Source: Nitrospira japonica (lineage in GTDB: Bacteria > Nitrospirota > Thermodesulfovibrionia > UBA6902). From it: 64,000 nt of DNA. The DNA lies in contig DYJL01000001.1 in the NCBI GenBank assembly GCA_020723105.1, positions 198,273 to 262,272 on the forward strand, given 5' to 3'. The first letter of the stretch is position 1. Each line of letters begins with the position of its first letter. The translations under genes and the position numbers were made by a program. The notes under the pieces are model-generated. The model ran no database searches. It had not been told where the DNA came from and saw only the letters and a list, made by a program, of their open reading frames with translations. Positions 6,499 to 37,545 of the stretch are shown in pieces.

Positions 6499-6665
6499 GA
6501 AAAGATTGAAAGTTCATAAGATTAAGAAAAGAGAACTCAGTAGACAGTAGTCAGAAGAAAGAAAGCAGGAAGTAGGCAGAAGAACGAAGTCCATTCTGAA
6601 TTCTGGATTCTTCTGTTTTAACTTTCGAACTTACGAGCTTATGATCTTTCACTCTTTATTGCTTT

Positions 6666-11346: not shown

Positions 11347-13839
11347 GTGAAATCAGACATGTCATTTGATCTTTACTATAAAAAGAATACAAAAGAGCTT
11401 ATAGTTCTTTACAAAGATACGGAAAGGGATGTGGTTTGCTTTATCTCTATTGAAAGGCATCCAACAGCAAAACAGAGGATCGTTGGGGTTGATGACTGGA
11501 AGCAGGTCCTGCCGGAGTTCAGGCCATTCAGCTTTAATAGGGCTTATTCCTGTTTCAGAGATCGAACAATATCTGACAGTTCTGATGAATATGAATACAC
11601 ATATCATAAGAGCGTACTTGACCGCTTTTTTCACGATTCATTAGATCAGACAGAGGTATCACTTCTTGACCGGTACAACATCAACCTGTTTCTAATCCTT
11701 CTCTATATCAGGAAAGCGACGATCAATACTTTGATAGAGAACAATCCTGCGTTAGCGCTTATGCTGATCCATGATTCATGCAATTCATCCCTGCCGTTCG
11801 AATCAGATGAGCTGTGGGCGAACATCAGGGAGACGGCTCAATTAATGCCATCGCAGATCGTAAAGAATCTCTATAACATTAAGACAAGCAGAAAGGCTTC
11901 AGAGATTTTTCAGAAGGTCGATACAAAAGAACTGCCATGTATTGAGCCTCTCCTGCAGCTGATAGAAAGTCTAAGGGATTGCTGGGTCATGGGGATACTT
12001 GAGAATCTCAACAGGATATCTTATGAGGTATTGCTCATAATCATTGAGCGAAAGAACAGGTCTGTGATAAGCGCGGGATTCCTGACCTCTGTGAATGCGT
12101 CATCGGGAAGTCCTGTTTCAGCATCTCATATGCTTCAGTGGCTGCATGAGAACCATGTCACGATCCATTTCCCACTAACAAATATGCGCCACCTGCGCAC
12201 TATATACGAGCATATAGTGAAGGAGGAAGACCTCCCTGACGTCGTGGATGAATTTAATTCCGGGCCTTTGATCACATGTCAATCAGATCCAGGGCCACAG
12301 AATGATAGTGTCAAAGAACGAGATCCCATTCTAGAAGTTCCCCATAGAATGGAGAAGGCATCAGATATATTGCTCGCAATGCAGCATGATATACTGGGGC
12401 TTGGAAAAAAGACATACCAAAAGCTCCTGGATCTTGAGAAGGATATACCGGTCATTGATAGACCGGCTGCTGTGCTTAAGGCTGTATCCGTCACAAAGGA
12501 ATTCTTTCTTCTTAAGGAAAGAAAGATAACGCACCTGCTCGAAACATATGATCAATCAAAGGCATTCAACAGCATCGGCAATTCCGAACTTATCAATGAA
12601 CAGTTTCCGGAGCTCGAAAGACTGATCGATCCCGAATTTCTTAGTGAGTATGTGGCATCTGCTGACAGTGATAACTATAGCAGGCGGCTGCGTGGACACG
12701 CCAGAGCATTGAACCGCCACAGGCTGCTTCATGAAATTATTATGGATGAGATCAGAGCTGTAATTAAATGCAGCCAGGCCAAATCCATGACGATCAAGGA
12801 ACTGAAGAGGGTGATAGCTGCAACAGCGCTTCATGATTATAGAAATAAAGATGTACTGCAGGCATTGAAACTCGCAATGGAAATGAATAATCCCATTCTC
12901 AGGGGAAACGCCGTTGCGGAGCTTTTGTTTACTCGCATACCAGCATATATAAGATCACATTTTACGGATGATCCGAAGGTCATTGTCTCCCTGAGGCAGC
13001 GCCTGCTTTCAAAAATATCAAAGGTCAAGGGGCCTCCAAATTTAAAAATAGCGCTGTTCCATCTGGCGCCCAGATCAAACACCCGGAAGAAGGATGATTT
13101 CATCGCAATGATGAACCGGCTACTCTCATTCATCGAGAAAACTGAGATCGTTGATGAAGAATCAAAGATCTCGGTCCGGAGTTTTATTCAGAATGTGACA
13201 GGAGAGATCAGACGTCTAGATTCTATTTACAAAAAACTGTTCCTGACTGAAAAGGAACTTCAGGACGTTTATGGACTGTACAGGCCGAACAACAGACTGG
13301 TCACATGCAATATGCAGCATATAGAGAGGATCATATATGAACACTGCGATATACAGAAACTGTATATGTATCCATGCAAGGATTATCTGGATCTCGAAAA
13401 ATACCGCTGGTCTCATGATTGCAGCAAGGACACGTTGGGAGTAAACCAGCTCAGGACCCCTCAGTTCTTTAATGTCAGGTTATTCAAAAATGACAAGGAA
13501 TATTGCGGGAACATATATATGCTCCAGATGGAATGCGATTCGAGGATTTATCTCCTTGTCGATCGTATCCAGACAGCAAGTTTTGACACGAGGTATGTGA
13601 TGTTCTACGACACCCTGAAGGACGCCTTCCAAAAGATGTTCCGCGACCTTTCCTTTAATGAGATATTACTGCCGGACATAAATGTTTCTAACAATGCATC
13701 ACTTAATAAATTGTTCCATGACTCAAAAAAGAAATATATCAAAAAGAAGGTCAGCTTTGATCTGCATGACGATATGAGACGTAATTTTGAGTGCCTTAGA
13801 AGCGATTCGTTTCATGTTTTATACTCAAAAACGAGTTAG
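11347..13839 (+). CDS. Hypothetical 830-aa protein
   Basis: Long ORF between paralogs B and C. No recognisable motifs. Confidence 0.55.
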   Translation: MKSDMSFDLYYKKNTKELIVLYKDTERDVVCFISIERHPTAKQRIVGVDDWKQVLPEFRPFSFNRAYSCFRDRTISDSSDEYEYTYHKSVLDRFFHDSLDQTEVSLLDRYNINLFLILLYIRKATINTLIENNPALALMLIHDSCNSSLPFESDELWANIRETAQLMPSQIVKNLYNIKTSRKASEIFQKVDTKELPCIEPLLQLIESLRDCWVMGILENLNRISYEVLLIIIERKNRSVISAGFLTSVNASSGSPVSASHMLQWLHENHVTIHFPLTNMRHLRTIYEHIVKEEDLPDVVDEFNSGPLITCQSDPGPQNDSVKERDPILEVPHRMEKASDILLAMQHDILGLGKKTYQKLLDLEKDIPVIDRPAAVLKAVSVTKEFFLLKERKITHLLETYDQSKAFNSIGNSELINEQFPELERLIDPEFLSEYVASADSDNYSRRLRGHARALNRHRLLHEIIMDEIRAVIKCSQAKSMTIKELKRVIAATALHDYRNKDVLQALKLAMEMNNPILRGNAVAELLFTRIPAYIRSHFTDDPKVIVSLRQRLLSKISKVKGPPNLKIALFHLAPRSNTRKKDDFIAMMNRLLSFIEKTEIVDEESKISVRSFIQNVTGEIRRLDSIYKKLFLTEKELQDVYGLYRPNNRLVTCNMQHIERIIYEHCDIQKLYMYPCKDYLDLEKYRWSHDCSKDTLGVNQLRTPQFFNVRLFKNDKEYCGNIYMLQMECDSRIYLLVDRIQTASFDTRYVMFYDTLKDAFQKMFRDLSFNEILLPDINVSNNASLNKLFHDSKKKYIKKKVSFDLHDDMRRNFECLRSDSFHVLYSKTS

Positions 13840-23878: not shown

Positions 23879-24451
23879 TTGTGCTATAATGCAAATCTAG
23901 GGGACGGATTGCGAGGATCTAAGTTGAATTGTAGCAAGAAAATCATTTCTGCAGTTCTTATCTTTTCTCTCCTTGCCCTCTGCATCAACTTACAAACGTA
24001 TGCTAAGGATTACACGATTATCCGGGGAACGGTTACGAAGGTCAGCGATGGAGATACTATTGTTGTCAGACCTTTCAGTGGGAAACTTTTTAAGTGCAGG
24101 CTTTACGGAATTGATACTCCTGAGATATCGCATAATGGAATAGTAGGGCAACCTTATGGTAATGCTGCTGAAAGAGAGCTGAAAAATCTTATTCTGCATA
24201 CTACTGTTGATATTACTCTTACCGGTGATAAAACATATGAGCGTGAAGTATGTATCATCAAGAAAATGGGTGTGGACATCAATAGGGAGATGGTTATAAG
24301 AGGCTACGCGTGGGCTTACATAGAATATCTTAAAGGACCTTATGCTTCCGAGTACATTAGGGCTGAAGCTGAGGCTCGTAAAATGCGCCGCGGGTTATGG
24401 CAGCAGAGAAATCCAACACCACCGTGGGAATTTAGAAGAGAAAAGAAATAG
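23879..24451 (+). CDS. Staphylococcal-nuclease (SNase/thermonuclease)-like secreted nuclease
   Basis: Signal-peptide-like N-terminus. GDTIVV...RLYGIDTPE...QPYGNAAERELKNLI matches the SNase fold motifs. Confidence 0.65.
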   Translation: MCYNANLGDGLRGSKLNCSKKIISAVLIFSLLALCINLQTYAKDYTIIRGTVTKVSDGDTIVVRPFSGKLFKCRLYGIDTPEISHNGIVGQPYGNAAERELKNLILHTTVDITLTGDKTYEREVCIIKKMGVDINREMVIRGYAWAYIEYLKGPYASEYIRAEAEARKMRRGLWQQRNPTPPWEFRREKK

Positions 24452-25081
24452 CGTTAAAACCCTCCAGCGAAGACCTGTCTATTAAATCATCATCCCCATC
24501 TTTGTACAGACCTTATAAATTGCTTTTTTACCACTATCTAATGAGAACTGTCAAATATGAAGGATTAGAATAAATTATTAATCTAAATTAGTACTATAAA
24601 ATTCATTCATCAGTCCAAGCACCATCAATTCTTCCAAATCGCATAAACATTGACACCGGAGCAGGGAATTATGGGCCGTTGACGGCTATAGAACTGCCGT
24701 CACTGAAAATCTGGCAGCAAAATTAATCTGGACAGCCTACCATTGCTGCTCTCGCTTTTTTTAAAAACCTCGGTAACCTGCACAATCGTTTCGGCAAAAA
24801 TAACCGAAATCCCCCCAATATCCTTCCATTAGGAAGTCTTTCCGCACTATCACCTCCCTTCAAAAGTAATACAAATACATAGCATTTAATTTTCAGTAGT
24901 TTTAACGAAAAGGTGTGACTGGACATAAGCCGTCATGCCCTTTTTGTCTTGAAGGGAGGTGAAACGTGATTGAAAGAATAATCATAACAATTCTGCTGAT
25001 TGTCTATGTGTATATAGGAATAAATCTTATGGAAACTGTCTACCAGATTTTAATAAAACTTAGAAAAAGGAGAAAACGGAA

Positions 25082-26584
25082 ATGGTTGATCAACCAGGTA
25101 ACAATACAGTAGCAGCGAGAGAATGCTTAAATAATTCAGAACTGTCATCAACCCTTTTGGGTCCTATTTTCAGGCTTCCCAAGGCAGGAGTTATCCGGCC
25201 CGGCATCAAAGCTTTAAAGAAAAGCTGTACTGCCGATGATCAGAAGATTTATAGCAGAATGCTTGAAGAAGGCGCTACATGGGATGAAATTGACCGCTCT
25301 CTTGGAACGGACAAGAATGGTAAATCGAAATTGATCCCTGAAAACGTCGATTACTTCACTATACGTCCGGAGGACTGTAAGAATTCTGATGACGCAAGAA
25401 GGCTTCATGACTTTTATGCCGATCCTGACGGGAAAATAAGAAGCCTTCCTGTCTGGTTCTCTATCAATGAATGGTATAACATCATCCCACACGGACTGAG
25501 AGCTTTCGGCAAAACGCAGGGAATCCGCTACCATAGCGATCTCATTGAAAAACAGGATGCTGATGGCAGAAAAGAGTTTACTCGTGTTTGCAGGTTCCCT
25601 CTTAACGTTGAGCCCGGAAAAAGGATTTACGGCGGTAGAAGATGCGGTGAAAGGCCGTGTGATCCCAATAATTGCCCTGAATACCAGTCCGGGAGCTGCA
25701 AATTCGGAGGGGTCATCTGCTGCCACATTCCCGGCGTCAAAGGTGTAGGAGTATGGCTTATACCGACAACATCATGGTATTCCCTATCAAACATCAAGAG
25801 CACGTTCGAAATTGTAGCAAACCTGACACGGGGAAAGATTGCAGGACTTGTTGAACCCTCTGCTGACTCTCCAAGCCGTTTTAAGACAGTGTTTCGTATC
25901 CGGAAGGTATCGGAGACTGTATCCATGATAGATCATAAATCAGGCAATCCGACAAGGGTTGAGCAGGATCTTATTCATCTGGACGTAGATATAGATCTGA
26001 CAGAGTTGGCTGTTTCTTATAACGGTCATAAACTGATCACAACCGGTTTCTCATCCGCAGCCTTGCTGAATGGCAAAAACAACGGAACAGGTTCCCATTC
26101 ATCGCTATTAAACAAACCATCGGATAATAGCATGGACAAGTCTGAAACTAATGCCACTACGGGATCAAAAGAAGATAAAAATCCTGAGCCGGGAAACACA
26201 AACAAGACACTTGGTGAGGATGCAGGAAAACTTTTTGGGCTGCTCGCTGCTAAATTCGATACAAATGAGGGAATTAAGGCTGAACTGGAAAGACTGACAA
26301 ACAGGAACAGCTTTTTCGAACTAACCGATAATGAGGCAAAGACAGCCATTGATGCTCTCACAAAGTCGGCCAAGAAGCAATGCGATCCGCCTTCAGATAA
26401 CGGCAATGAGCCGGATGAGGTAAAAGAACTTAAAACCATTCTCACGGCACTGTGTGAAGGGGAAGACGACATAGCGGTCAAGCTCAAGGAATTAACCGGC
26501 GTTGATTCATTTGAGAAGGTTACAAAAGAAATGGCAATAAGGGCCATTGAAAAAATGACTGTAAACACCCTGAATGACTTTTAA
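25082..26584 (+). CDS. Hypothetical 500-aa protein with a Cys-rich centre and a low-complexity Ser/Asn/Lys/Glu-rich C-terminal half
   Basis: Cys cluster CGERPCDPNNCPEYQSGSCKFGGVICCH. It is the first gene of a co-directional module with DUF736 and a Toprim primase. Confidence 0.5.
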   Translation: MVDQPGNNTVAARECLNNSELSSTLLGPIFRLPKAGVIRPGIKALKKSCTADDQKIYSRMLEEGATWDEIDRSLGTDKNGKSKLIPENVDYFTIRPEDCKNSDDARRLHDFYADPDGKIRSLPVWFSINEWYNIIPHGLRAFGKTQGIRYHSDLIEKQDADGRKEFTRVCRFPLNVEPGKRIYGGRRCGERPCDPNNCPEYQSGSCKFGGVICCHIPGVKGVGVWLIPTTSWYSLSNIKSTFEIVANLTRGKIAGLVEPSADSPSRFKTVFRIRKVSETVSMIDHKSGNPTRVEQDLIHLDVDIDLTELAVSYNGHKLITTGFSSAALLNGKNNGTGSHSSLLNKPSDNSMDKSETNATTGSKEDKNPEPGNTNKTLGEDAGKLFGLLAAKFDTNEGIKAELERLTNRNSFFELTDNEAKTAIDALTKSAKKQCDPPSDNGNEPDEVKELKTILTALCEGEDDIAVKLKELTGVDSFEKVTKEMAIRAIEKMTVNTLNDF

Positions 26585-26614
26585 AAACAATAATCAAAAG
26601 AAAGGAGACAAAAG

Positions 26615-26851
26615 ATGTCAAAACAAATCGGCGCATTATGGGTAAAGGAGTATACAAGAGACGGTGAACCGAGAAAGATGCTTTCCGGAACACTTGATAT
26701 CGGAGTTTTGGGAGAGATAGACATAGCCATTTTCCCAAACGACCAGAAAAAAGAATCCAAACACCCGGATTACCGTATTGTACTTGGGACCTCAAACGGA
26801 AAAGGTGAGTTCAAGGCCAGAGAAGAAAGATCAGACAAGAAACCTTTCTAA
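26615..26851 (+). CDS. DUF736-family protein (commonly carried on conjugative/integrative elements)
   Basis: IGALWVKEYTRDGEPRKMLSGTLDIGVLGEIDIAIFPNDQKKESKHPDYRIVLG matches the DUF736 pattern (IG.f.k....f.G.l......v.l.p...k...APDYRv). SD GAAAGGAGA upstream. Confidence 0.55.
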   Translation: MSKQIGALWVKEYTRDGEPRKMLSGTLDIGVLGEIDIAIFPNDQKKESKHPDYRIVLGTSNGKGEFKAREERSDKKPF

Positions 26852-27030
26852 GGTCCTTATCTACATCTACCAAAAATGGGGCGAGAGTTTCTCTTGCCCT
26901 TTTTTTTGCCTTAAGGAGGTAATACACAGGTAATAACTAACTATTTAGTAGAAATCCGAACGAAAAGGGCAGAGCAAAAGTAACATTATTTTGCCATGTC
27001 CTTTTTGTTTTCAAATATCATGGAGGTGAT

Positions 27031-28035
27031 ATGGAAAGGAAAATAATTGAAAAAGCAAAAAACATCAACTTAATGTCGTACATCGAGCTCGTGTTAGGGC
27101 TTGTTCCGCAAAGACGTGTATCCGGCGGCACTTTTTACTTCTCGCCGTTCAGGCAGGAGAGTGAAGCTTCATTGCATGTCTCGTTATTAAACGGGATCTG
27201 GCAGTGGTATGACCACGGGAGCGCAAACCGTGATGGCGGAGACACAGTTAAGTTTGTGCTCAAACTCAGGCAATGTTCTTTTAAGGAGGCAGTTGATGAT
27301 CTGCTCAGGTTTGACGGATCAAGCTGTGAGAATGAACAAACACAGCCTGTAAACAGGTCGAAGATTGACACTTCCCGGAATAAGATGAAAAAAATATTCT
27401 GGGCCAGAAAATTCTACAGCCGGCTGCCTAATAATAATGAAAGGCTGATAAGGAGGTACTTTACTGAAAGAAGATTACGATTTTATCCTGAACTGGGCTG
27501 TAAGGTGTATGTCCACTTCAAAGATCAGTTGAGCTACGTTACTTTTCCGCTTCCCAATCCTGAAAAACTCAGAGGGTTGGAGCTCAGGGAGATATGCGGT
27601 CTTGATAAAGAGATAGGTTTAACTGAAGAAAGAAAGAATCGTAAGAATTACGGCACAAAGACCTTGTGGGTATTTAAAAGAGACACATCCCGGATACTGG
27701 TTGCGGAATCAATACTTGATGCGCTTGCCGGAGAGGTCATTCTCAACGATTACAACATATCACTTGCAGCCTTAAATGGGGTAGGGCAGGTATCCCAGCT
27801 TAACCCTTTAATTCAAAGTATGAAGCCCCAAAAAATTGTTTTTGCTCCTGACAGGGACATGCCTGGCAGGGAAACTGAGTTAATCGCTAAAGAAATTTTC
27901 AAAAGAAATAACGTTGAGTATGAAGTTCTTGAGACAAAAGAGAAGGACTTGTTTAGGGCACTTCATTTAGGGAAAGGAGTAAACAATGCTTACGACAGCA
28001 AATCGCAAACTGAATATCTCAAAGAATGCTCTTGA
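27031..28035 (+). CDS. Primase-like protein: degenerate CHC2-type N-terminal domain plus C-terminal Toprim domain
   Basis: N-terminus ASLHVSLLNGIWQWYDHGSANRDGGDTVKFV resembles the DnaG zinc-ribbon region but lacks the Cys ligands. The C-terminus has Toprim-like E...DxD (ILVAESILDA ... FAPDRDMPG). Confidence 0.5.
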   Translation: MERKIIEKAKNINLMSYIELVLGLVPQRRVSGGTFYFSPFRQESEASLHVSLLNGIWQWYDHGSANRDGGDTVKFVLKLRQCSFKEAVDDLLRFDGSSCENEQTQPVNRSKIDTSRNKMKKIFWARKFYSRLPNNNERLIRRYFTERRLRFYPELGCKVYVHFKDQLSYVTFPLPNPEKLRGLELREICGLDKEIGLTEERKNRKNYGTKTLWVFKRDTSRILVAESILDALAGEVILNDYNISLAALNGVGQVSQLNPLIQSMKPQKIVFAPDRDMPGRETELIAKEIFKRNNVEYEVLETKEKDLFRALHLGKGVNNAYDSKSQTEYLKECS

Positions 28036-30073
28036 GGTATTAAGGAAGCGTTATCTTAAAAAGGATGACCATGGCAATCCGACGGAAACACCGGAAGATT
28101 TGTTCAGGCGTGTTGCAGAGAACATAGCTCATGCAGACAGCTTCTACGGGGCATCCCCTAAAGAAGTAACACAAACTGCAGAGACATTCTATGATCTTAT
28201 CATGAGCTTGCGGTTCTTACCGAACAGCCCTACGCTTATGAACGCAGGAAGGGAATTACAGCAGCTTTCAGCGTGTTTTGTATTGCCCGTCGGTGATTCG
28301 ATGGAGGAAATTTTCGAGGCTTTAAAGAAGGCCGCTCTGATTCATCAAAGCGGCGGAGGTACGGGATTTTCGTTCAGCAGGCTTCGTCCGAAAGACGATA
28401 TGGTTTCAACAACAAAGGGAAAGGCAAGTGGGCCTATATCTTTTATGGAGGTCTTTGATTCAGCAACGAATACTGTCAAACAGGGTGGGACCCGCAGGGG
28501 CGCAAACATGGGGATTTTGAGAGTGGATCATCAGGACATCTTGGAGTTCATCTCCTGCAAAGGCGAAGAGGGAAGGCTGCAAAATTTCAACATTTCTATA
28601 GCCATAACCAACAGTTTCATGCAGGCGCTAAAGGAAGAAAAGATGTACCGTCTCATAAACCCGCGCACAAAGAAAGTTGTTAAAGAGCTTTCGGCAAGAG
28701 AGGTATTCAACAGGATTGTTGATATGGCATGGAAAAACGGAGAGCCGGGGATTATCTTCATTGACAGGATCAATGAGAAAAATCCCACTCCTCATGCAGG
28801 TGAGATAGAAGCCACTAATCCATGCGGAGAACAGCCTCTTTTGCCATATGAGTCCTGTAATCTTGGTTCCATCAATCTTTCACTGATGGTTGATAGTGCC
28901 TCCGTAAACTGGAAGTTACTTGAGGATACTATAAAAACTGCGGTGCATTTTCTGGATAACGTCATAGACATGAACAAGTACCCACTGTCTCAGATAGAGA
29001 CCGTCACCAAACTCAACAGGAAGATCGGACTCGGGGTTATGGGATGGGCTGATATGCTTCTTAAAATGAGAATTAAGTATAGCTCAGATGAGGCAGTCAA
29101 GCTTGCTGAAAAGGTAATGAGTTTCATTCAGGCTGTAGCATATGATGCATCTGCTGAACTTGCAATGAAAAGAGGGGCGTTCCCCAACTGGAAGGGAAGC
29201 ATCCACAACGGAGATAACGGTAGAAAACTCAGAAATGCCTCAATCACAACCATTGCCCCTACGGGAAGCATCAGCATAATTGCTGGTTGCTCTTCAGGCA
29301 TTGAGCCTGTCTTTGCATGGCAGCATAAAAGCAAACAGGTGGATACGGAGTTTACATGGGAACATCCCATATGGGCGTTGTATAAGGATAAGGATTTACT
29401 TCCCGAGTACTTTGTTAAGGCTGACCAGATTCCAACCGAATGGCACGTCAAGATGCAGGCCGCTTTCCAGAGGAACACTGATAATGCCGTCTCAAAAACG
29501 GTAAATCTGCCTAACTCGGCGACCAGAGAGGATGTTGCAAAGACCTATCTGCTGGCGTATGAGTTTGGATGTAAAGGCATCACAGTCTACCGTGATGGAA
29601 GCCGGGAAGAACAGGTTTTGACAACTACAGACAGACAAATTGCAAAGAAAGGCAAGAGCGGGAAGGAGACCTTGCCTGAGGTGATTGATGAGAAAAGGGT
29701 TGTGGTTCCGACAAAAGAAGGTAAATATTACATCCATCTAAGCCATGTTAATGGAACGCCGAAAGAGATATTCGTCACTGTTCCTCCGATTGGCAAATCG
29801 AGGGCGTGGGTTGAATGTATCTCAAGGCTGATATCCATTGCTATGCGAGCCGGAGTTTCCTGCGAGGCTCTTATTGATCAGCTCTATAAGAGCTATTTGC
29901 AGTATGGAGACGTAACATCACCATTGCTGCATATCAATAAAGGTCTGACAAAGGCGCTTGAGTCATTAAACAGAAAGCCCAACTTTGAGATCACATGCAC
30001 TGACTGCGGCGGAGTAATGATTCTGGAAGAAGGATGTATGAAGTGCTACTCATGCGGCGCAAGCGCCTGCTGA
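27986..30073 (+). CDS. nrdJ: Class II (adenosylcobalamin-dependent) ribonucleotide reductase
   Basis: NPCGEQPL active-site motif. C-terminal zinc-ribbon CTDCGGVMILEEGCMKCYSCGASAC. The start overlaps the primase gene end by 50 nt. Confidence 0.85.
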   Translation: MLTTANRKLNISKNALEVLRKRYLKKDDHGNPTETPEDLFRRVAENIAHADSFYGASPKEVTQTAETFYDLIMSLRFLPNSPTLMNAGRELQQLSACFVLPVGDSMEEIFEALKKAALIHQSGGGTGFSFSRLRPKDDMVSTTKGKASGPISFMEVFDSATNTVKQGGTRRGANMGILRVDHQDILEFISCKGEEGRLQNFNISIAITNSFMQALKEEKMYRLINPRTKKVVKELSAREVFNRIVDMAWKNGEPGIIFIDRINEKNPTPHAGEIEATNPCGEQPLLPYESCNLGSINLSLMVDSASVNWKLLEDTIKTAVHFLDNVIDMNKYPLSQIETVTKLNRKIGLGVMGWADMLLKMRIKYSSDEAVKLAEKVMSFIQAVAYDASAELAMKRGAFPNWKGSIHNGDNGRKLRNASITTIAPTGSISIIAGCSSGIEPVFAWQHKSKQVDTEFTWEHPIWALYKDKDLLPEYFVKADQIPTEWHVKMQAAFQRNTDNAVSKTVNLPNSATREDVAKTYLLAYEFGCKGITVYRDGSREEQVLTTTDRQIAKKGKSGKETLPEVIDEKRVVVPTKEGKYYIHLSHVNGTPKEIFVTVPPIGKSRAWVECISRLISIAMRAGVSCEALIDQLYKSYLQYGDVTSPLLHINKGLTKALESLNRKPNFEITCTDCGGVMILEEGCMKCYSCGASAC

Positions 30074-30130
30074 GTCCGCACGATTCAAAGTAAGGGCGTA
30101 TGGGATTTCCTGTACGTCCTTTTTTGTTTT
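29904..30130. repeat. Left copy of a ~220-bp diverged direct repeat (nrdJ 3' end plus terminator)
   Basis: About 85% identical by eye to 35595..35806. Covers codons ...GDVTSPLLHINKGLTKALESLN..CTDCGG..CGASAC plus the terminator. Confidence 0.7.
30093..30126 (+). terminator. Rho-independent terminator after nrdJ
   Basis: AGGGCGTATGG-gattt-CCTGTACGTCCT stem (11 bp including three G·U pairs) followed by TTTTTTG. The same structure recurs after the orphan nrdJ fragment at about 35773..35813. Confidence 0.45.
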
Positions 30131-30253
30131 TCGAATAGCTTGAAATTGGTCGCATGAAAAGTAAATGACTTCCCCTTTTCATCAGATGATCCCTTTCATT
30201 ATTGAAAATTATTTGCAGCAATATTAGCATGAAGAAATCGTGAAAGTTTCCTC

Positions 30254-31174
30254 TTAAAGTCCTCTCCGTTTTCTTTTCGGGGGCGTATTTTTGGCCAACA
30301 CCTTCTTTGTTTTCCTTGCGCCTTTCTTTCGTAAAGTGTCTTTTGCAGATGACCTGCCTTTCGCGGAGGTTGCAGTCTTCCTGGTGTTTCGAGACGAAAT
30401 GGAAACAGCGCTCTCTGATGAGACCGATGAAGAAACCTCTAAATCATGTTCGAGCTCGATGCCGAATGTTTGGGACAAATTAGCTTCCTCAATGATCCTG
30501 GAGCTTTTCTTTGACGCCAGGGCCAGAAGTTTTTGCTTATGCTCCGAGATAGCCTGCCCTATCAGTTCGCCCATTTCCACGTTCCGCATTTTGAAAAACA
30601 ACGCTGGACTCTCATCGAGCCGCGCCCCTATACCATAAAGAGCTGCCGCCACGTGCTTACACATACCGGCCCAGTCAGGACAGGAGCAACTAAATTTGAT
30701 TTCCTTTGGCGACGGGAACATGCCTGAATCCTTATGAGTAAATATTTCTGCCATCGTTTTGGGAAAGCTCCCGTTGATGAGCTCTCGCAAAGATTCAAGC
30801 ATTCCCTGACATTGATTTATGATTGTCTGCCAAATATCTTTCTTTAGAGTTTTTATGCTGATGACCACTGAATAAGGGCTTGACTGTGATCCCTGGACAG
30901 ACGCCAGAACTTCCCCGGAGTCGATCTGCAGATCAAGTACCGCGCCGTGGCGGACGTAGCTCCGTCCCCTGCCGATGCGGTTATGGTAATCGGCGTATCG
31001 CTCAAGATTGCGGTTCCAGGCCTTGCCCCACCAGGTGCATGCAATAGCTGTGCCCTGAAGGATCACCGGCTTCAGGTTCGGGTTCTTCTTTGACAACTGC
31101 TTAAGTTTCTTCGCTGCCTTTGCCTTTTTCTCGGCTACGGATACATATCGAGGAAACCTATCCCAGTAAGACAT
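30254..31174 (-). CDS. SWIM zinc-finger domain protein with a basic Lys/Arg-rich C-terminal tail
   Basis: CSCPDWAGMCKHVAAALY fits the SWIM CxCx(n)CxH signature. The C-terminal about 60 aa are K/R/S/A-rich. Confidence 0.7.
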   Translation of the reverse strand: MSYWDRFPRYVSVAEKKAKAAKKLKQLSKKNPNLKPVILQGTAIACTWWGKAWNRNLERYADYHNRIGRGRSYVRHGAVLDLQIDSGEVLASVQGSQSSPYSVVISIKTLKKDIWQTIINQCQGMLESLRELINGSFPKTMAEIFTHKDSGMFPSPKEIKFSCSCPDWAGMCKHVAAALYGIGARLDESPALFFKMRNVEMGELIGQAISEHKQKLLALASKKSSRIIEEANLSQTFGIELEHDLEVSSSVSSESAVSISSRNTRKTATSAKGRSSAKDTLRKKGARKTKKVLAKNTPPKRKRRGL

Positions 31175-31274
31175 TTATTATGCTCCTTACAGATTTATTA
31201 ATGGCAACGACTCTCGTCTGTCTTGCGAACCGCAAAGTGCGCAAAGGAATAAACAGAGCTATTTTATCACAGGG

Positions 31275-33944
31275 TCATACAGACAGGGAAAAAAGTTCAA
31301 TCAGAGCATCATTGTCCATCTCCGTTATCCAGTCCTCTCCTACTGATTGAATCACTTCCTGAGCCAGTTTTATCTTGCCTTCTATCATCCTGTCGATCTT
31401 TTCTTCAATCGTACCTTCTGTGATGAATTTGTGGACGACAACGCCTTTTTTCTGGCCTATCCTAAAGGCCCTGTCGGTAGCCTGATTCTCTACCGCCGGG
31501 TTCCACCAGCGGTCAAAGTGTATGACATGATTTGCCGCCGTAAGGTTCAGACCCACTCCACCTGCTTTTAATGAGAGTACCATGAAAGGTACATAAGCGG
31601 CGTTCTGGAATTTATCGATCAAGCCTTTTCTCTTTGCCACGGCGGTGCCGCCGTGCAGGATGAGGCCTTCCCTTCCGAACACGATGTCAAGGAATGCCTT
31701 GAGTGGCTCGGTTATTTCCCTGAACTGAGTGAAGACCAGGACCTTTTCCCTCTTTCCAAGGATGGTTTCGCAGATCTCTCTAAGCCTGCCGAATTTGCCG
31801 CTTTCTTCTTCATCGTACCCGTCTGTTCCAAGATACTGATCAGGGTGATTGCAGAGCTGTTTGAATTTCATGAGCGAGGAGAGGACTATGCCTTTGCGCT
31901 GAATGCCCTCGGTCCGATCTATCGTCTCTTTAAGCTCACGGACCATTTCTTTATAGAGGAGAAGCTGCTTCTTGCTTAAAGATGCATACGTCTTCATTTC
32001 GACCTTTTCGGGCAGGTCTGAAATAACCGCCCTGTCGGTTTTCAGACGTCTCAGAATATAGGGGCTGATAATCCGCCTCAGTCTTGCGTAGCCATCGGGA
32101 GACTGATGCAGCGCCTTTGCGAATTTGACGAACTCTTGAGCGCCTCCGAGCAGTCCGGGGTTAATGAAGTCGAACAGGGACCAAAGATCGGACAGCCTGT
32201 TTTCAACCGGAGTGCCTGTCATGATTAGCCTGTTTTGGGCCTTGAGCCTTTTTATGCTCCGCGTCTGCTTTGCTCCGGGGTTCTTAATAGCTTGGGCTTC
32301 GTCGAGTATGATGTAGTTCCATTCACACTCATGAAGCCACTCATATCTCTGCGCAAGGGAGTAGGTCGTAATGACAAGATCGATTCCCTTCAGTGAATCA
32401 CGGTCATTCGGCTCTATCTTTCTTTCTGTGGGCGCTCCAGGATGCGCGATACAAAAAATCAGGTCCGGCGCAAAGCGGGTGAGCTCATTCTCCCAATTCG
32501 AAATGAGGGACGCGGGCACGACGAGCAGGCTCGGCAGTCGCGGGTTTTGCGATTTAATAATAGTGAGCAGCCCGATTACCTGGACGGTCTTTCCAAGCCC
32601 CATGTCATCCGCCAGACAGATACCAAGTCTTAAAGAATGGAGAAAGGCAAGCCAGTTCACTCCTTTCTGCTGATACGGCCTCAGGTCGGCCTTTAATGCC
32701 TTCCCCGTCTGAGTAAAATCTATCGACTCGGGGCTGCGGAGCTTTTTCAGCACAGTATCGAGCCATTTGCCGTTTGTCAATTCAATATCCTGCGACTGGT
32801 CGGAAACTCCCAAAGCGGATTTCGGATCCAACTGCATACGCATGGCGTCTCTGAAGCTGAATTCGCCTGCCGCAATCATATCACGCGCCTTCTCGTATGC
32901 ATCGAGGGTTTGCTTCAATTTCTCTGGATCAACCGCCACCCATCTGTTTTTGATCCAGGCGAGACCTTCCGATTTCAGGAGCAGCCGCCGGGCTTCATCT
33001 TCAGGGATGGCCGTGTCTCCAAGAAGGAGCTCTGGTCTAAAATCAAGGAGGGCGTCCATTCCGACGTGAGAAGGCTGCTTATCTCCGGCAGTTAAACGAA
33101 GTCTTACTCCCTGAGTGGGGCCTTTCCACCAGTTCGGGATCCTGCAAAGTATCCCGGCATTCTCATAGATTGAGGCCTCTTTTAAGAAGGTGTATGCCTC
33201 TTGCGTTGTCATTAAAAGAGGATGAAAGATTTCCCCGGATTCCACCAACTCGCTGATGAATCTGCTCTCCTTGGCAGCTAAGTGGACCGTTGAAAGCAGA
33301 TCCAGGAGCTTTTGATTGTCGCTGCCGAATTCTTCGAGAGCATATTTCAAAGGGACGTGTCTGGATGCGCCCCGGGTGTTGAGGCCTGTCGAATAGGTGG
33401 CCAGGAAGGCAAAAGGGGCATCGTCCTTTTTGCTCTCGACAAGATGGAAATAGACCCGACCTATAAGATGCACATTCGGACTGTAAGACCTGATGAACTC
33501 CTCGACAGTCCCTTTATAATGTCTGACACCCTCCGAAAAACATCTGTTAAGTCCACCCCATATGTTTTCAAGGAGGTCAGCATTCAGATACTCAGCGCCG
33601 GTCATGAGGGGCGCGCTGTCAATTACAGAGCAGGCTTCGTCGGATAAAAGCGAGACTGTGACGCTCTCCCTGATCTGCTCCATATCCGGCGTCATCCTTA
33701 TCTTTTCTGCGAACAGGCCTGCAAATGCACGCCAGAAATTGACCGAATCGGAAAGCTGAATAGATTTGTCACTGAACCCGATGAAAAGAAATGCTGAGGC
33801 CTTGTCAGCACTGAACCGCCGGAATATTTCCTGTTCCAATAACTGGCGACTCTTAGTGACCTGTTCTTCCGACGGCGACCATTCAAGCTGGACGTCGCCG
33901 CCCGGCATTATGACTGCGTGCAATTCCCTGTTCATAAGAGGCAT
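31275..33944 (-). CDS. SNF2-family (Snf2/Rad54-like) helicase/ATPase
   Basis: Motif I LADDMGLGKT and motif II ILDEAQAIKN. C-terminal helicase motifs LTAANHVIHFDRWWNPAVENQATDRAFRIGQKK. Confidence 0.85.
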   Translation of the reverse strand: MPLMNRELHAVIMPGGDVQLEWSPSEEQVTKSRQLLEQEIFRRFSADKASAFLFIGFSDKSIQLSDSVNFWRAFAGLFAEKIRMTPDMEQIRESVTVSLLSDEACSVIDSAPLMTGAEYLNADLLENIWGGLNRCFSEGVRHYKGTVEEFIRSYSPNVHLIGRVYFHLVESKKDDAPFAFLATYSTGLNTRGASRHVPLKYALEEFGSDNQKLLDLLSTVHLAAKESRFISELVESGEIFHPLLMTTQEAYTFLKEASIYENAGILCRIPNWWKGPTQGVRLRLTAGDKQPSHVGMDALLDFRPELLLGDTAIPEDEARRLLLKSEGLAWIKNRWVAVDPEKLKQTLDAYEKARDMIAAGEFSFRDAMRMQLDPKSALGVSDQSQDIELTNGKWLDTVLKKLRSPESIDFTQTGKALKADLRPYQQKGVNWLAFLHSLRLGICLADDMGLGKTVQVIGLLTIIKSQNPRLPSLLVVPASLISNWENELTRFAPDLIFCIAHPGAPTERKIEPNDRDSLKGIDLVITTYSLAQRYEWLHECEWNYIILDEAQAIKNPGAKQTRSIKRLKAQNRLIMTGTPVENRLSDLWSLFDFINPGLLGGAQEFVKFAKALHQSPDGYARLRRIISPYILRRLKTDRAVISDLPEKVEMKTYASLSKKQLLLYKEMVRELKETIDRTEGIQRKGIVLSSLMKFKQLCNHPDQYLGTDGYDEEESGKFGRLREICETILGKREKVLVFTQFREITEPLKAFLDIVFGREGLILHGGTAVAKRKGLIDKFQNAAYVPFMVLSLKAGGVGLNLTAANHVIHFDRWWNPAVENQATDRAFRIGQKKGVVVHKFITEGTIEEKIDRMIEGKIKLAQEVIQSVGEDWITEMDNDALIELFSLSV

Positions 33945-33945
33945 C

Positions 33946-35343
33946 TCAGAACATTTCCATCGCGGAGATCAATAAAACCTGCTCCCTCTTAGCCCTTTCT
34001 CTTAAAGCATCCGTATAGCCTGATCTTGAAAACAGCATGAAATACTCTTTCCTCTTCCCTTTGTTCAATTCCACAAGGGATGCCTTCCTCTTTAGATCGT
34101 CCAGGATATTGACTCCGACCGGCTTCTTGCTCCACTTGGCCTCGCCAAAATATATTCCTTTGTTTTCCTCATCGATGGCGATTATGTCAATCTCCTCATT
34201 CTTCTGCCACCACCTGCCTATTGAGGTAAACCTGATTTTGCCGTCCCTCATCATATCCAAACAATATCCCTTGCACACGTCCTCGAATACAAATGAAAGA
34301 TGTTGGTCAAAGGTTTCCTTTATCATCCGCAGCACTTCCCCTCCTTTGCCGATTTCGAGTCTGCTCCTGTTCGGAAAGACATATTTGAACCAGAATTCAA
34401 AGAACCGGTCGTGAATTCTATAAAGTCCCATCTTGCTCTTTTCGGGATATTTTTCGGTTACCGGCACCTCTTTTTCAACGAGCCTGAGACCACGAAGAAT
34501 TTCGAGATACCTTGAAAGAAGACTCTTTTCAAACGCGGTGTCGTTGATAATCTCCGAGAGCTTTCTTTTCCCCTGCGCGATTGATCTCAGAATGACAAAG
34601 TAGTTCCTCGGCTCCCTCAGCTCCTCGCGCAGCAGGTATTCCACCTCGTTATAAAGGAATGTCCCTCTGTCCAGTATAAGCTCTTCTATATTTTGGAATA
34701 TATCTTTTTCGGGATTGAGCTTTTCAAGATAAGCCGGGATCGTTCCGGTCACCCCGAAGATGGAAACGAGCTCATCTATTTCTTTATCGGGGAAGAACTC
34801 TTTCAGACAATTAAATCCCATCTCCCTGAGCTCGAGGGCTCCCGTTCTTCTTCCATAAAGGGGGGCCTTGTAGAAAAGCACCTCCCTCTCCATCATCCCG
34901 ATGCTTGAACCCATAAGGATGAGGAACAGCTTTGTGTCTTTGAAATACTGGTCAATCCCCTTCTGGAATATGGAGGAGATTGCCTTGTTTGAGTTCACAA
35001 GATAGGGGAATTCATCTATTACAATGAGCGTTCTCTCTTTTGTCCTTTTTTTCAGGTAGTCAAAGAACTGATACCAGTCTTTGAACCCTGTTTCTGCAAG
35101 GAAGGTGTCATCAAAGAAAGCGCCTACCTCTCTGCCGAGGAGTTTTAGTTGCTCTTGTTCGGCAACGCTGTCGGCAAGGAAGTATATGGCCGGCTTCTCT
35201 TTAATGAATTCCTGAACAAGTCTTGTCTTCCCAATCCTTCTTCTTCCGTAAATAGGGATAAACTGGAATTTGTCTTCCCTGTATAATCCTTCAAGGATTT
35301 TAAGCTCTTCTTTTCTGTCAACAAATTTCATTCCGCCTCTCAA
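33946..35343 (-). CDS. Arch_ATPase (PF01637-like) AAA ATPase with C-terminal DUF234-like domain
   Basis: FVDRKEELKILE...IPIYGRRRIGKT Walker A and LIVIDEFPYL Walker B. The C-terminal region looks like DUF234. The stop is 1 nt from the SNF2 start, suggesting an operon. Confidence 0.65.
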   Translation of the reverse strand: MRGGMKFVDRKEELKILEGLYREDKFQFIPIYGRRRIGKTRLVQEFIKEKPAIYFLADSVAEQEQLKLLGREVGAFFDDTFLAETGFKDWYQFFDYLKKRTKERTLIVIDEFPYLVNSNKAISSIFQKGIDQYFKDTKLFLILMGSSIGMMEREVLFYKAPLYGRRTGALELREMGFNCLKEFFPDKEIDELVSIFGVTGTIPAYLEKLNPEKDIFQNIEELILDRGTFLYNEVEYLLREELREPRNYFVILRSIAQGKRKLSEIINDTAFEKSLLSRYLEILRGLRLVEKEVPVTEKYPEKSKMGLYRIHDRFFEFWFKYVFPNRSRLEIGKGGEVLRMIKETFDQHLSFVFEDVCKGYCLDMMRDGKIRFTSIGRWWQKNEEIDIIAIDEENKGIYFGEAKWSKKPVGVNILDDLKRKASLVELNKGKRKEYFMLFSRSGYTDALRERAKREQVLLISAMEMF

Positions 35344-35571
35344 GTATAATCACGATTAGTATAATGTGGATTATACATAATATCGTGGTGCAATGCAATA
35401 TAAGGGGTTTTCTTTCGGAATGTCAGTATGACGGAAGTCCCGGTCGTTAAGGAGCGTGAAGAAATCGTGAAAGAAAATTATCAAAAACAATATAATTACG
35501 ACGAATAATATAGGAATAGGAAATGGGGCCAACTAAAAGACAGGTAATAATTATTTAGTATTTTCAGGCGC

Positions 35572-35763
35572 TTGCAAGGTTCCTTGGTTGAGAATGGAGA
35601 TGTAACGTCTTCTCTACTGCATATCAATAAATGCCTGTCAAAGGCTCTTGAGTCATTAAACCTGAAGCCTCATTATGAAATAACATGCACCGACTGCGGA
35701 GGGATAATGATTCTGGAAGAAGGATGTATGAAGTGTTACACATGCGGCGCGAGCGTCTGCTGA
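35572..35763 (+). pseudogene. Orphan 3' fragment of a class II RNR gene (nrdJ C-terminal zinc-ribbon)
   Basis: ...GDVTSSLLHINKCLSKALESLNLKPHYEITCTDCGGIMILEEGCMKCYTCGASVC is a close match to the nrdJ C-terminus at 29904..30073. No RNR-like sequence lies upstream of it. Confidence 0.7.
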
Positions 35764-35806
35764 AATTGAATTGAAGGGCGTATGGGAATTTCTGTACGTC
35801 CTTTTT
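35595..35806. repeat. Right copy of the ~220-bp diverged direct repeat
   Basis: See 29904..30130. Confidence 0.7.
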
Positions 35807-35967
35807 TTTGCTTTTAAAATGTATTCCTTGGAAGTTTGATTAACATTAGCGGGGTGCTGAGATAGGGATCATCAAAAATGGATAAATATGTAGAACATAA
35901 CCTATCAAACTCGAATACATTAAATTTACATCTTGCCCCCCCTCTGAATATTGCAACGGTTTCTTCC

Positions 35968-37077
35968 TTAGAACCAGATCTTCACCGGGCAATGGTCCGA
36001 GATGTTGTTCTTCCAATCCTTCTCGATTTCCTTAAACCGTTTGTGGTCAAATGGTAACTTCGATTTCTCCGGCGCAGTAGAACCTGGCTGTGAAGTAACG
36101 GGGTCTTCTTCAAAATGGATCAGGGTTGCTGGAAGGATATTGCCAGATTTTCCTGCCTTATAAGATAAACCTCTGCGTTCAATATGCGGTTTTTTCTTTT
36201 CATCATTCTGTACTTCCTTTTTAATCCTTTGTGCTAATGCCTTTGATACCAAAATAAAATCGATTTGTGAAACGCGATTCTTATCGCGCCAGAAATATGT
36301 CCATGCGTCATCCTCTGCTCTATATTCCTGAATGACATTACTTAGATAAGGAGATTCGATTAAAGGCTTTATATATGGACTATACGGAGTATCATTAAAG
36401 TCCCCAACAACAGCATAAAGTGCAGAATCATGTTCACCTTTGAAACGATCTTCTATTTGTTCAGAAACAGTTTTTGCCTGTAATTTCCTCTGCCCATGAC
36501 TTTCACTGATGCGGACATGGTATTTTGCATTTGATTCATTTTTCTTTTTTATTACCAGTTTTGATTTCAAATGATTGACGAAGAGAGTAAGTTTTTCACC
36601 ACCGTGCAATATAAAGGTCACTTCAAGACAATCACGGCTAAATATCCTTTTTCCGTTCTTGGTTTCATCAATATGACTTCTTATATCTTTAATAGGAAAC
36701 GTGGATAGGACTCCAACATCTATATTCCTCGGGTCGTACCCGTCAATCAATAATGAATACTGATAATAGCTTTTGAGGTAGTTTTCATTAAACGCGCGTA
36801 TCGCATCCATGTTTTCTACTTCCTGAAGGCATAGTATATCAGGCAACTGCCCGTCTGGTTCTTTCAATGCCTTTACAGCTATCTTTCGTCTCTCTGGTTC
36901 CCAGATGATAAAATTATTTGGCAAATATTTACCAAATGCCTTTTCAGGAATATATCCCATCGTTGCTGCTTCTGATGCTTCAACCAGAGATTTTTTCGAC
37001 ATGTCGCCAGGGTAGGTCTTGCTGAACTTATACCTAAGAAAAAAATTGTTGGCGTTGAAAGTTGCTAAAGATGGCAT
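35968..37077 (-). CDS. Endonuclease/exonuclease/phosphatase (EEP) family protein
   Basis: ILCLQEVEN near the N-terminus, GDFNDTPYSP, and C-terminal SDHCPV are EEP signature blocks. Confidence 0.7.
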   Translation of the reverse strand: MPSLATFNANNFFLRYKFSKTYPGDMSKKSLVEASEAATMGYIPEKAFGKYLPNNFIIWEPERRKIAVKALKEPDGQLPDILCLQEVENMDAIRAFNENYLKSYYQYSLLIDGYDPRNIDVGVLSTFPIKDIRSHIDETKNGKRIFSRDCLEVTFILHGGEKLTLFVNHLKSKLVIKKKNESNAKYHVRISESHGQRKLQAKTVSEQIEDRFKGEHDSALYAVVGDFNDTPYSPYIKPLIESPYLSNVIQEYRAEDDAWTYFWRDKNRVSQIDFILVSKALAQRIKKEVQNDEKKKPHIERRGLSYKAGKSGNILPATLIHFEEDPVTSQPGSTAPEKSKLPFDHKRFKEIEKDWKNNISDHCPVKIWF

Positions 37078-37545
37078 GGTTTTCCCCTCCTTTATTTTCC
37101 GTTGATTGCTTAGATAATTAAATCAGGAACTAACTATTATTTCAATACTTTTTTATGTTCTTCTTTGATCCGGCACCGACCAATCCCGTACAGATATCAA
37201 AACATCTACCGGATGATGAGTTTGCAGTGTTGAGAGACAACGCAAATCTTTTTGCGTTGACACTTCCTTGAATAATCTTAAAGATTCAAGCTTAAATATT
37301 TTACAATTTTCATTGGAGTGATTTTAATAGTGCTGGGAGAGGATTTGATTATAAAAAAGAGGTTGTGAAAATCAATCTCAAAATTGTGCCCATTTTGTGC
37401 CCGTCAGACCAAAATTAATGCCAATTTCTGCCAACTCTATCCAACATTAAAAAATAGAGTAAGCCCTTGAAATAAGAGCTTAATAGCCTTATTTCAAGGG
37501 CTTGTAAGATTGGCTTAAAAACCGGTTTTTCGGTCTCAAAATCCA

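Follow-up and report, generated by a model that had tools for sequence, protein, structure and literature searches.

The stretch of DNA analysed here, 64,000 nucleotides (nt) of Nitrospira japonica contig DYJL01000001.1 (the window), is part of a bacterial chromosome, with ftsW, divIC, bioB, bioW, thrS and tRNA-Val among its genes. It contains three consecutive minus-strand genes, encoding a SWIM zinc-finger protein, a Snf2-family ATPase (SNF2) and an AAA+ ATPase with a DUF234 domain, which occupy an insert of about 5.7 kb that is richer in guanine plus cytosine (GC) and lies between duplicated 3' ends of nrdJ. The closest homologues of all three proteins are found in metagenome-assembled genomes of Nitrospirota/Thermodesulfovibrionales. 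The original prediction, made from the sequence, had taken the three genes for an operon-like trio and a putative defence-like module. The genes lie where it had placed them and Pfam returned the domains it had described; the conserved unit, however, is the SNF2-SWIM pair and not the trio. The genes and the elements associated with them are as follows.

33946..35343, minus strand: AAA+ ATPase (ATPase_2) with an ArsR-like helix-turn-helix (HTH) and a DUF234 PD-(D/E)xK nuclease-like domain, 465 residues (Pfam; PDC-S27)
31275..33944, minus strand: Snf2-family ATPase of the SSO1653/YwqA type, 889 residues (886 from ATG 33935; Pfam, motifs)
30254..31174, minus strand: SWIM zinc-finger partner, 306 residues (Pfam SWIM, 20.3 bits; cut-off 19.6)
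31175..31274, minus strand: SNF2-SWIM spacer, 100 nt, carrying the SWIM ribosome-binding site AAGGAG
35397..35426, minus strand: promoter-like site CTGACA-18-TATATT upstream of the ATPase gene, with 10/12 consensus matches in a consensus scan

The stop codon of the ATPase gene (TGA, 33946-33948) is followed after one base by the in-frame ATG (33944) of the SNF2 gene, in the arrangement TGAgATG, and 100 nt separate the SNF2 and SWIM genes, in agreement with the spacing first proposed. The relatives of the SNF2 protein start at the position of ATG 33935 (MNREL/MNSEL), which widens the ATPase-SNF2 gap to 10 nt. The database gene call for the ATPase comprises 461 residues and begins at ATG 35331, not at TTG 35343; ATG 35331 is the probable start. 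The Walker, DEAQ, motif VI, SWIM and D...ExK motifs are all intact, and the pairwise ratios of nonsynonymous to synonymous substitution rates (dN/dS) against relatives, about 0.1 for SNF2, 0.17-0.24 for SWIM and 0.03-0.08 for the ATPase, are those of purifying selection. All three are thus working genes. The promoter-like site falls in a stretch of about 90 nt that moves with the ATPase gene, and this predicted promoter likely drives all three genes at the present locus.

Conservation of the SNF2-SWIM pair and mosaic structure of the trio

A profile built from homologues of the SWIM partner was used to retrieve 80 species-level loci from several phyla. About 76 of these carry a full-length SNF2 homologue (51-89% identity) directly upstream of, and co-oriented with, the SWIM gene, and most of the exceptions are contig ends. 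The loci with the pair belong to Nitrospirota, Desulfobacterota, Planctomycetota and other phyla, and the surroundings of the pair vary from locus to locus. No homologue of the DUF234 ATPase, of nrdJ or of the flanking nuclease was found in any of the 80 loci, and clustering of all 868 neighbouring open reading frames (ORFs) revealed no third gene that moves with the pair. The description of SNF2 and SWIM as a widespread two-gene unit is therefore borne out. Of the proposed three-gene module the pair stands, whereas the conserved operon-like trio does not: the DUF234 ATPase was found beside none of the 80 pairs, and five close homologues of it are solo genes.

The same division is visible in the DNA. 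A block that spans the pair (30270-33937) has 81-86% identity with six Nitrospirota loci (L002-L006 and L047), and this homology runs unbroken through the 100-nt spacer. A second block (33957-35434), comprising the ATPase gene and about 90 nt of its own upstream region, is 84% identical to a different set of loci (L082-84). Only about 20 nt separate the ends of these two homology blocks; the trio is thus a mosaic and should not be annotated as a single system. Both of its units are of already known kinds.

The Snf2 motor and its relation to known systems

The SNF2 protein consists of an N-terminal region of about 240 residues without a Pfam match, a DUF3670 domain (residues 240-371; 6.9e-32) and a motor (residues 420-830) that matches SNF2-rel_dom (3.3e-67) and Helicase_C (2.5e-18). 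No other Pfam domains were found, and the protein terminates about 60 residues past Helicase_C. The motor has the motifs GLGKT, DEAQ, TGTP and QATDRAFRIGQ. Among solved structures the best match to the protein is the core of Sulfolobus SSO1653 (SsoRad54; PDB code 1z63), with 454 bits (8.5e-135), followed by a Mot1-like protein with 269 bits; the assignment to the SSO1653 subfamily is based on such best-match scores. This subfamily includes Bacillus subtilis YwqA and Synechocystis sll1366 and is kept apart from the RapA group (PMC2677860), and the SWIM-associated Snf2 group has been named as such (PMC5512222 and PMC2677860). Within this Snf2 type, ATPase and translocase activity stimulated by double-stranded DNA (dsDNA) is known only for SsoRad54 (PMC2677860). 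The window protein shares with the SSO1653/YwqA group its motor, the N-terminal DUF3670 and the adjacent SWIM partner gene, but its gene differs in being located in a repeat-flanked insert, where it abuts an ATPase-nuclease gene.

The protein was further compared with models of characterized families, and it reaches the cut-off of none. The NCBIfam scores are 539 bits for the SCO1167/SCO6262 helicase (cut-off 1200), 358 bits over residues 369-866 for the pilus-regulating Snf2 (NF053675; cut-off 1100), 302 bits for ZorD (cut-off 1500), 116 and 60 bits for DrmD (cut-offs 950 and 610), 43 bits for DpdE (cut-off 500) and 42 bits for RapA (cut-off 576), the last over a short stretch only. The PADLOC matches to ZorD, DpdE and DrmD cover the generic motor only (residues ~330-880), and that to HmaA (1.3e-19) the C-lobe of the helicase only. 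A Foldseek search of the AlphaFold2 (AF2) model of the N-terminal 420 residues (predicted local distance difference test score, pLDDT, 86) against the PDB and the viral database BFVD returned nothing below E=0.09; the apo structure of ZorD appeared only at E=0.67, with a template-modelling score of 0.17. Neither a nuclease nor a methylase domain was detected in the SNF2 protein by Pfam, NCBIfam or Foldseek of the N-terminal model. The searches thus yielded neither the fused effector domain nor the membership of a known defence family for which the original prediction had proposed to look.

With ZorD, HmaA, DrmD and DpdE the window protein has the Snf2 motor in common, and the differences lie in what accompanies it. 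The annotated flanking genes (nrdJ, a nuclease, bioB and others) include no zorABC, no drmA/B/C or methylase, no dpd cluster and no Hma partner. In contrast to Zorya type I, the motor carries no fused Mrr-like nuclease, and the C-terminal PD-(D/E)xK nuclease found in HmaA is likewise lacking; for DISARM and Dpd, the scores below the DrmD and DpdE cut-offs accompany the missing partner genes. A further bacterial relative, with a score under its cut-off as given above, is the pneumococcal Snf2-family repressor of type 1 pilus genes, which shows that a bacterial Snf2 protein can act on transcription (Basset et al. 2017, cited in PMC8465756).

The SWIM zinc-finger partner

The SWIM motif of the partner protein, CSCPDWAGMCKH (CxCx6CxH), is located at residues 163-174. 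The invariant residues in the alignment of SWIM partners are mostly arginines of an arginine-rich core motif, RIGRGRSYVRHG, together with the zinc ligands. The lysine- and arginine-rich tail noticed at the outset is real: residues ~238-306 are predicted to be disordered, and 19 of the last 46 residues are lysine or arginine. In the AF2 model the core has pLDDT values of 70-86, and the tail of less than 50. The family is very large, with 5,998 clusters at 50% identity matching at E<=1e-3. Among PDB sequences the SWIM profile found nothing but a spurious match (0.11) to the PilZ protein YpfA; a Foldseek comparison of the model (pLDDT 63) with PDB structures had no match below E=0.3, and no PADLOC family was matched convincingly. 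A literature search (SWIM with anti-phage; ywqB, Rv2102, SCO1167 and SCO6262) returned no functional study of the SNF2-SWIM pair; YwqB and Rv2102 are proteins that we take to be SWIM partners.

In a record of Wolbachia phage WO, a SWIM-partner core (34% identity, 4e-28) is located N-terminal to DUF3670 and Snf2 (34%, 5e-61) in one protein, and this SWIM-DUF3670-Snf2 fusion argues for a physical coupling of the two products. The fused ORF (L091 5983-8823; record MN180251.1) stops at residue 946, within the first motor lobe; it is either truncated or split, and may thus be a pseudogene in that record. In some SWIM-partner homologues (P0088, P0095, P0111 and P0119) the basic tail is replaced by a conserved C-terminal module of about 60 residues (…IRRSRKGV…KTGL…IRN.IYKAKKQGKIKN…RGVY). 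From its sequence this module resembles a small DNA-binding domain of the winged-helix kind, as might be expected if the tail serves to target DNA. The radiation-induced SWIM protein DdrT of Deinococcus was considered as a lead towards repair and dropped: it heads a different, five-gene operon (ddrTUVWX), and the corresponding paper mentions no Snf2.

The DUF234 ATPase

The ATPase matches ATPase_2 (2.3e-28), HTH_5 (5e-06) and DUF234 (4.2e-27) in Pfam, and has the Walker A motif GRRRIGKT, the Walker B motif LIVIDE and the nuclease signature D386...E401-A-K403 (numbering of the 465-residue form). DUF234/COG1672 is classed among the PD-(D/E)xK families (PMC3424549). The protein matches the PADLOC model PDC-S27 (PDLC04984) over its full length (9e-47, residues 6-437 of 465), in keeping with the suggestion that it belongs to a family associated with defence. 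PDC-S27 is a candidate single-gene defence system, an ATPase fused to a PDDEXK domain that is abundant in archaea; it is a "guilt-by-embedding" candidate with no activity reported (bioRxiv 10.1101/2025.04.20.649705). The window protein resembles it in its AAA+ and PD-(D/E)xK domains, its intact motifs and its solo relatives, and differs in that a Snf2 gene follows its own after 1-10 nt.

The five close homologues (81-87% identity) are found in unrelated places: after infB-rbfA-nrnA, between Fic and acetyl-CoA synthetase genes, and after glycosyltransferases, and one lies inside a cluster of genes for a Gp3-like protein, NrdJ, SSB and SbcCD. ATPase-PD-(D/E)xK genes, both of this type and of the AAA_14+DUF4143 type discussed below, travel as sharply bounded blocks of 1.4-1.5 kb that land between unrelated genes. 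Such a block consists of the gene and 75-90 nt upstream of it, and ends at the stop codon (window 33957-35434; L082-L088; L004 11032-12449 / L006 5816-7233). These genes may be selfish or self-mobilising, instead of or besides being defensive.

The insert and its boundaries

The insert is delimited by one set of direct repeats, and a second set, nested within the first, brackets its genes.

29897..30125, plus strand: direct repeat copy A, the last ~177 nt of the intact nrdJ and a hairpin terminator; left boundary of the insert
35588..35807, plus strand: direct repeat copy B, a displaced nrdJ 3' remnant (last ~59 codons) and a copy of the terminator; right boundary of the insert
30226..30246, plus strand: first copy (A) of the 21-nt direct repeat D8 (AGCATGAAGAAATCGTGAAAG), 8 nt past the SWIM stop codon
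35453..35473, plus strand: second copy (B) of the 21-nt direct repeat D8 (AGCGTGAAGAAATCGTGAAAG), separated from the ATPase homology block by 19 nt

By local alignment, the two copies of the nrdJ 3' end are 83-86% identical over about 230 nt and are spaced by about 5690 nt; copy B is 69% identical to residues 628-686 of NrdJ (tblastn). Terminator-like hairpins are present at 30092-30121 (copy A) and 35773-35804 (copy B). The intact nrdJ uses copy A, and the remnant in copy B corresponds to a listed ORF of 63 residues at 35572-35763. The D8 repeat has two copies only in the window, against a chance expectation of 0.01, and none of 100 shuffled sequences contained two. Its copies are identical at 20 of 21 positions and are set tightly around the three genes, 19-24 nt outside the two homology blocks. 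Its 18-nt core (GTGAAGAAATCGTGAAAG) was not found in the fetched loci except L001, which is itself the same sequence. D8 could be the core of an attachment site or a junction left by an earlier event.

The GC content is 0.50 in the pair and 0.44 in the ATPase gene, as compared with 0.39-0.41 in the rest of the window. Horizontal arrival of the segment, as originally proposed, is well supported, because flanking repeats of about 230 nt and 21 nt, an aberrant GC content and sharp homology blocks common to other genomes coincide here. The duplicated nrdJ end provides flanking direct repeats of the kind that a site-specific integrative element at the nrdJ 3' end would have. The three genes alone lie between the repeats, with no integrase or recombinase inside the insert. 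A Campbell-type insertion of a 5.7-kb circle through nrdJ homology, the circle bearing a foreign nrdJ 3' fragment, would fit this structure. An empty nrdJ site was not found, the exact terminator 26-mer being without a match in metagenome contigs. The identity of 80 relatives of nrdJ does not exceed 66%, and near none of them was another gene of the window found. A megablast search of positions 24000-37500 against phage genomes gave no match. L001, a Logan contig of 5719 nt (SRR13164373), is an independent assembly of the same sequence that ends inside both nrdJ 3' repeats; such ends would be expected if the repeats, or a mixture of filled and empty sites, confused the assembler.

Neighbourhoods and mobility of the pair

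Across phyla, the 121 immediate neighbours of the pair are mostly one-off housekeeping genes, with a minority that comprises Fic/SoFic (6), AAA_14 ATPases (4), TumE, PIN, HTH/Xre and AbiEii-like proteins. About 15% of these neighbours match PADLOC models, SoFic in six instances. A setting in large defence islands was considered and rejected, the size-matched genes two or more positions away being mostly housekeeping; for the same reason, the pair is best described as forming small islets. In the closest clade, defined by a SWIM partner of at least 73% identity, hardly any two genomes carry the pair at the same location, and its neighbourhoods often contain toxin-antitoxin pairs, integrases, IS91 or Y1 transposases, an archaeo-eukaryotic primase (AEP)-helicase or a BrxC/PglY-like ATPase. 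In this one Nitrospirota clade the pair is thus a precisely bounded mobile block amid toxin-antitoxin and mobile-element genes. SWIM-partner homologues are present in 2 of 50,697 phage records and in 149 of 72,556 plasmid records, the latter mostly large replicons. Consistent housekeeping contexts, such as an association with RNA polymerase, would have spoken against the original prediction and were not seen around the pair: no conserved linkage to recA, ruv, uvr or RNA polymerase genes was found in the 80 loci. Such positive evidence as there is for a defence role is circumstantial.

A proposed juxtaposition of two cassettes and the alternatives

We hold with moderate confidence that the trio represents two independently mobile accessory cassettes, juxtaposed in the insert of about 5.7 kb at the nrdJ 3' end and probably co-transcribed. 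Cassette 1 (33937-30270) is a prokaryotic SWIM-associated Snf2 pair, a kind of module that was noticed two decades ago and is among the commonest uncharacterised DNA-motor modules of bacteria and archaea. By homology, its motor is predicted to be an ATP-driven translocase on dsDNA, able to twist the DNA or to strip it of proteins, and not a strand-separating helicase. The SWIM protein would be its obligate partner, docking on the N-terminal DUF3670 region of the motor and tethering or targeting it to nucleic acid through the invariant arginine-rich core and the basic disordered tail; most likely, the SWIM subunit targets or regulates the translocase. Because no nuclease or methylase is detectable, the pair would act by remodelling. 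Its behaviour in this lineage is that of an accessory unit passed on horizontally, and its most likely role is not core housekeeping but conflict with, or maintenance against, DNA that is foreign or damaged.

Cassette 2 (35434-33957) is a self-contained gene of the PDC-S27 type, with AAA+ ATPase, winged-helix and PD-(D/E)xK domains and its own upstream region, and its product is probably an ATP-gated, DNA-sensing nuclease. The two cassettes abut with stop and start codons 1-10 nt apart, and the pair, having lost its own upstream region, would probably be read through from the predicted ATPase promoter. This arrangement makes co-expression likely and does not imply a mechanistic dependence.

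Several points weigh against this account of two independent cassettes. That the SWIM protein docks on DUF3670 and binds DNA is itself inferred; the pair is uncharacterised in every organism, YwqA being described as "poorly characterized" (PMC7385302); the size-matched genes two or more positions from the pair are overwhelmingly housekeeping; and the strong conservation of the pair across phyla also fits a maintenance function. Moreover, in three close relatives (L006, L004 and L007) an ATPase-nuclease gene of another type, AAA_14+DUF4143 (PDC-S01 architecture), adjoins the pair on the same strand. It lies upstream in L007 and in L006, where its stop codon overlaps the SNF2 start (GTGA), and downstream of the SWIM gene in L004; in L005 a 63-nt remnant of such a gene is left upstream of SNF2 (L005 7125-7187). 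Of the 27 size-matched ORFs adjacent to the pair, 3 are of this type, as compared with at most about 1 among the 117 non-adjacent ones (Fisher p 0.006-0.02), an enrichment that reflects two to three independent events, all in one clade. The type does not occur in the multi-member families of those 117 ORFs, and phmmer found no further instance among the 868 ORFs of the loci. The adjacency hints at a functional link rather than chance.

Since a gene of this type abuts the pair in three relatives, a facultative third partner is conceivable. On this reading, which we consider unlikely, the trio would be a facultative three-part DNA-targeting, defence-like system in which Snf2 and SWIM track DNA and an exchangeable AAA+ ATPase-PD-(D/E)xK subunit cleaves it, by analogy with ZorD or HmaA, where a nuclease is fused to the Snf2 motor; it would move as a repeat-flanked cassette of about 5.7-5.9 kb. 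The same-strand genes in the window and in these relatives, the remnant, the enrichment and the coupling-type junctions, TGAgATG here and GTGA in L006, are all consistent with such a system, as is the occupation of one position by two non-homologous ATPase families, DUF234 in the window and DUF4143 in the relatives. The trio of L004 is also flanked by direct repeats, of 201 nt and 95% identity (6551-6751 and 12499-12699), spaced by 5948 nt as compared with 5690 nt in the window, and Snf2 motors fused to PD-(D/E)xK nucleases defend against phage (HmaA, PMC11232893; ZorD as described in PADLOC). However, the immediate neighbours of about 70 more distant pairs include one further AAA_14 match only, and at least eight other contexts in the close clade are without such an ATPase-nuclease gene. 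The pair blocks of L004 and L006 are 92% and their ATPase blocks 95% identical, but the ATPase block is on opposite sides of the pair, as a separately moving unit would be. The close DUF234 homologues are solo, PDC-S27 and PDC-S01 are defined as single-gene candidates, and the statistics derive from the few events mentioned. The ATPase-nuclease genes, as highly mobile solo blocks, may simply settle in the same islets as the pair. The broader proposal that SNF2-SWIM pairs recruit an exchangeable PDC-S27- or PDC-S01-type nuclease, forming a DNA-surveillance system that spreads as a cassette of about 5.7-5.9 kb without a recombinase of its own, is quite unlikely in our estimation. If true, the three-part system would be the first function for the very large SWIM-associated Snf2 family, and two of the most common defence candidates of the "single-gene" kind would gain a partner. 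The recurrent adjacency of the pair with ATPase-nuclease genes, themselves candidate defence genes, is now exposed and is the one lead worth an experiment.

The 201-nt repeat of L004 takes in the 3' end of the ATPase gene and sequence downstream of it. Together with the remnant in L005, the L004 repeats are signs of repeated rearrangement around the pair.

The conservation of the pair is also what a role in genome maintenance would predict, as a Rad54-like accessory in recombination or repair or as a remover of stalled complexes at replication-transcription conflicts, with the islet being incidental. The closest characterized relative, SsoRad54, is a RadA-binding protein that stimulates strand exchange (PMC2677860), and deletion of ywqA in B. 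subtilis lowered viability about 8-fold upon PcrA depletion (PMC7385302). Identities across phyla of 51-66% for the SWIM partner and 51-70% for Snf2, the Snf2 dN/dS of about 0.1, the lack of an effector domain in the pair, its near absence from phages and rarity on plasmids, and its housekeeping farther flanks all point in the same direction. Against this, the 80 loci have no conserved linkage to recA, ruv, uvr or RNA polymerase genes, the location differs almost genome by genome even at 80-90% identity, the pair is often found between toxin-antitoxin genes, integrases and transposases, and the copy in the window resides in an insert of aberrant GC content. We regard maintenance as unlikely.

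A role of SNF2 in the recycling of RNA polymerase, as for RapA/HepA, is disfavoured and very improbable. RapA is, like the window protein, a bacterial Snf2-superfamily ATPase without a nuclease, and some authors group YwqA with the translocases that interact with RNA polymerase (PMC7385302), whereas the classification of Snf2 proteins sets the SSO1653 subfamily apart from the RapA group (cited in PMC2677860). The N-terminal architecture of the window protein differs from that of RapA, no RapA structure was among the Foldseek matches for residues 1-420, and the score of 42 bits stands far from the 576 required by the RapA model. The window protein also has a SWIM partner; RapA is not known to have one.

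The region next to the insert

A GC-richer run (0.42-0.46) at 25082-30073 adjoins the insert and encodes a Gp3-like recombination-directionality/GemA protein, a DnaG-like primase and NrdJ. In a Deltaproteobacteria contig (L087/L088; L087 1-7374), genes for NrdJ, dUTPase, SSB and a Gp3-like protein (47% identical) occur together, and the same contig carries a DUF234 ATPase of 81% identity, with SbcCD and Xre/RES genes after it. Positions 25082-30073 of the window and L087/L088 may belong to one family of replication modules that resemble those of phages. There is a 50-nt overlap between the primase-like ORF (27031-28035) and nrdJ, whose listed start is at 27986; this overlap may reflect a misassigned start or stop in one of the genes, or coupled genes. 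Two nuclease genes flank the GC-richer region, one for a staphylococcal-nuclease homologue (23879-24451) and the other for a protein of the endonuclease/exonuclease/phosphatase family (35968-37077) with weak similarity to ExeM/NucH.

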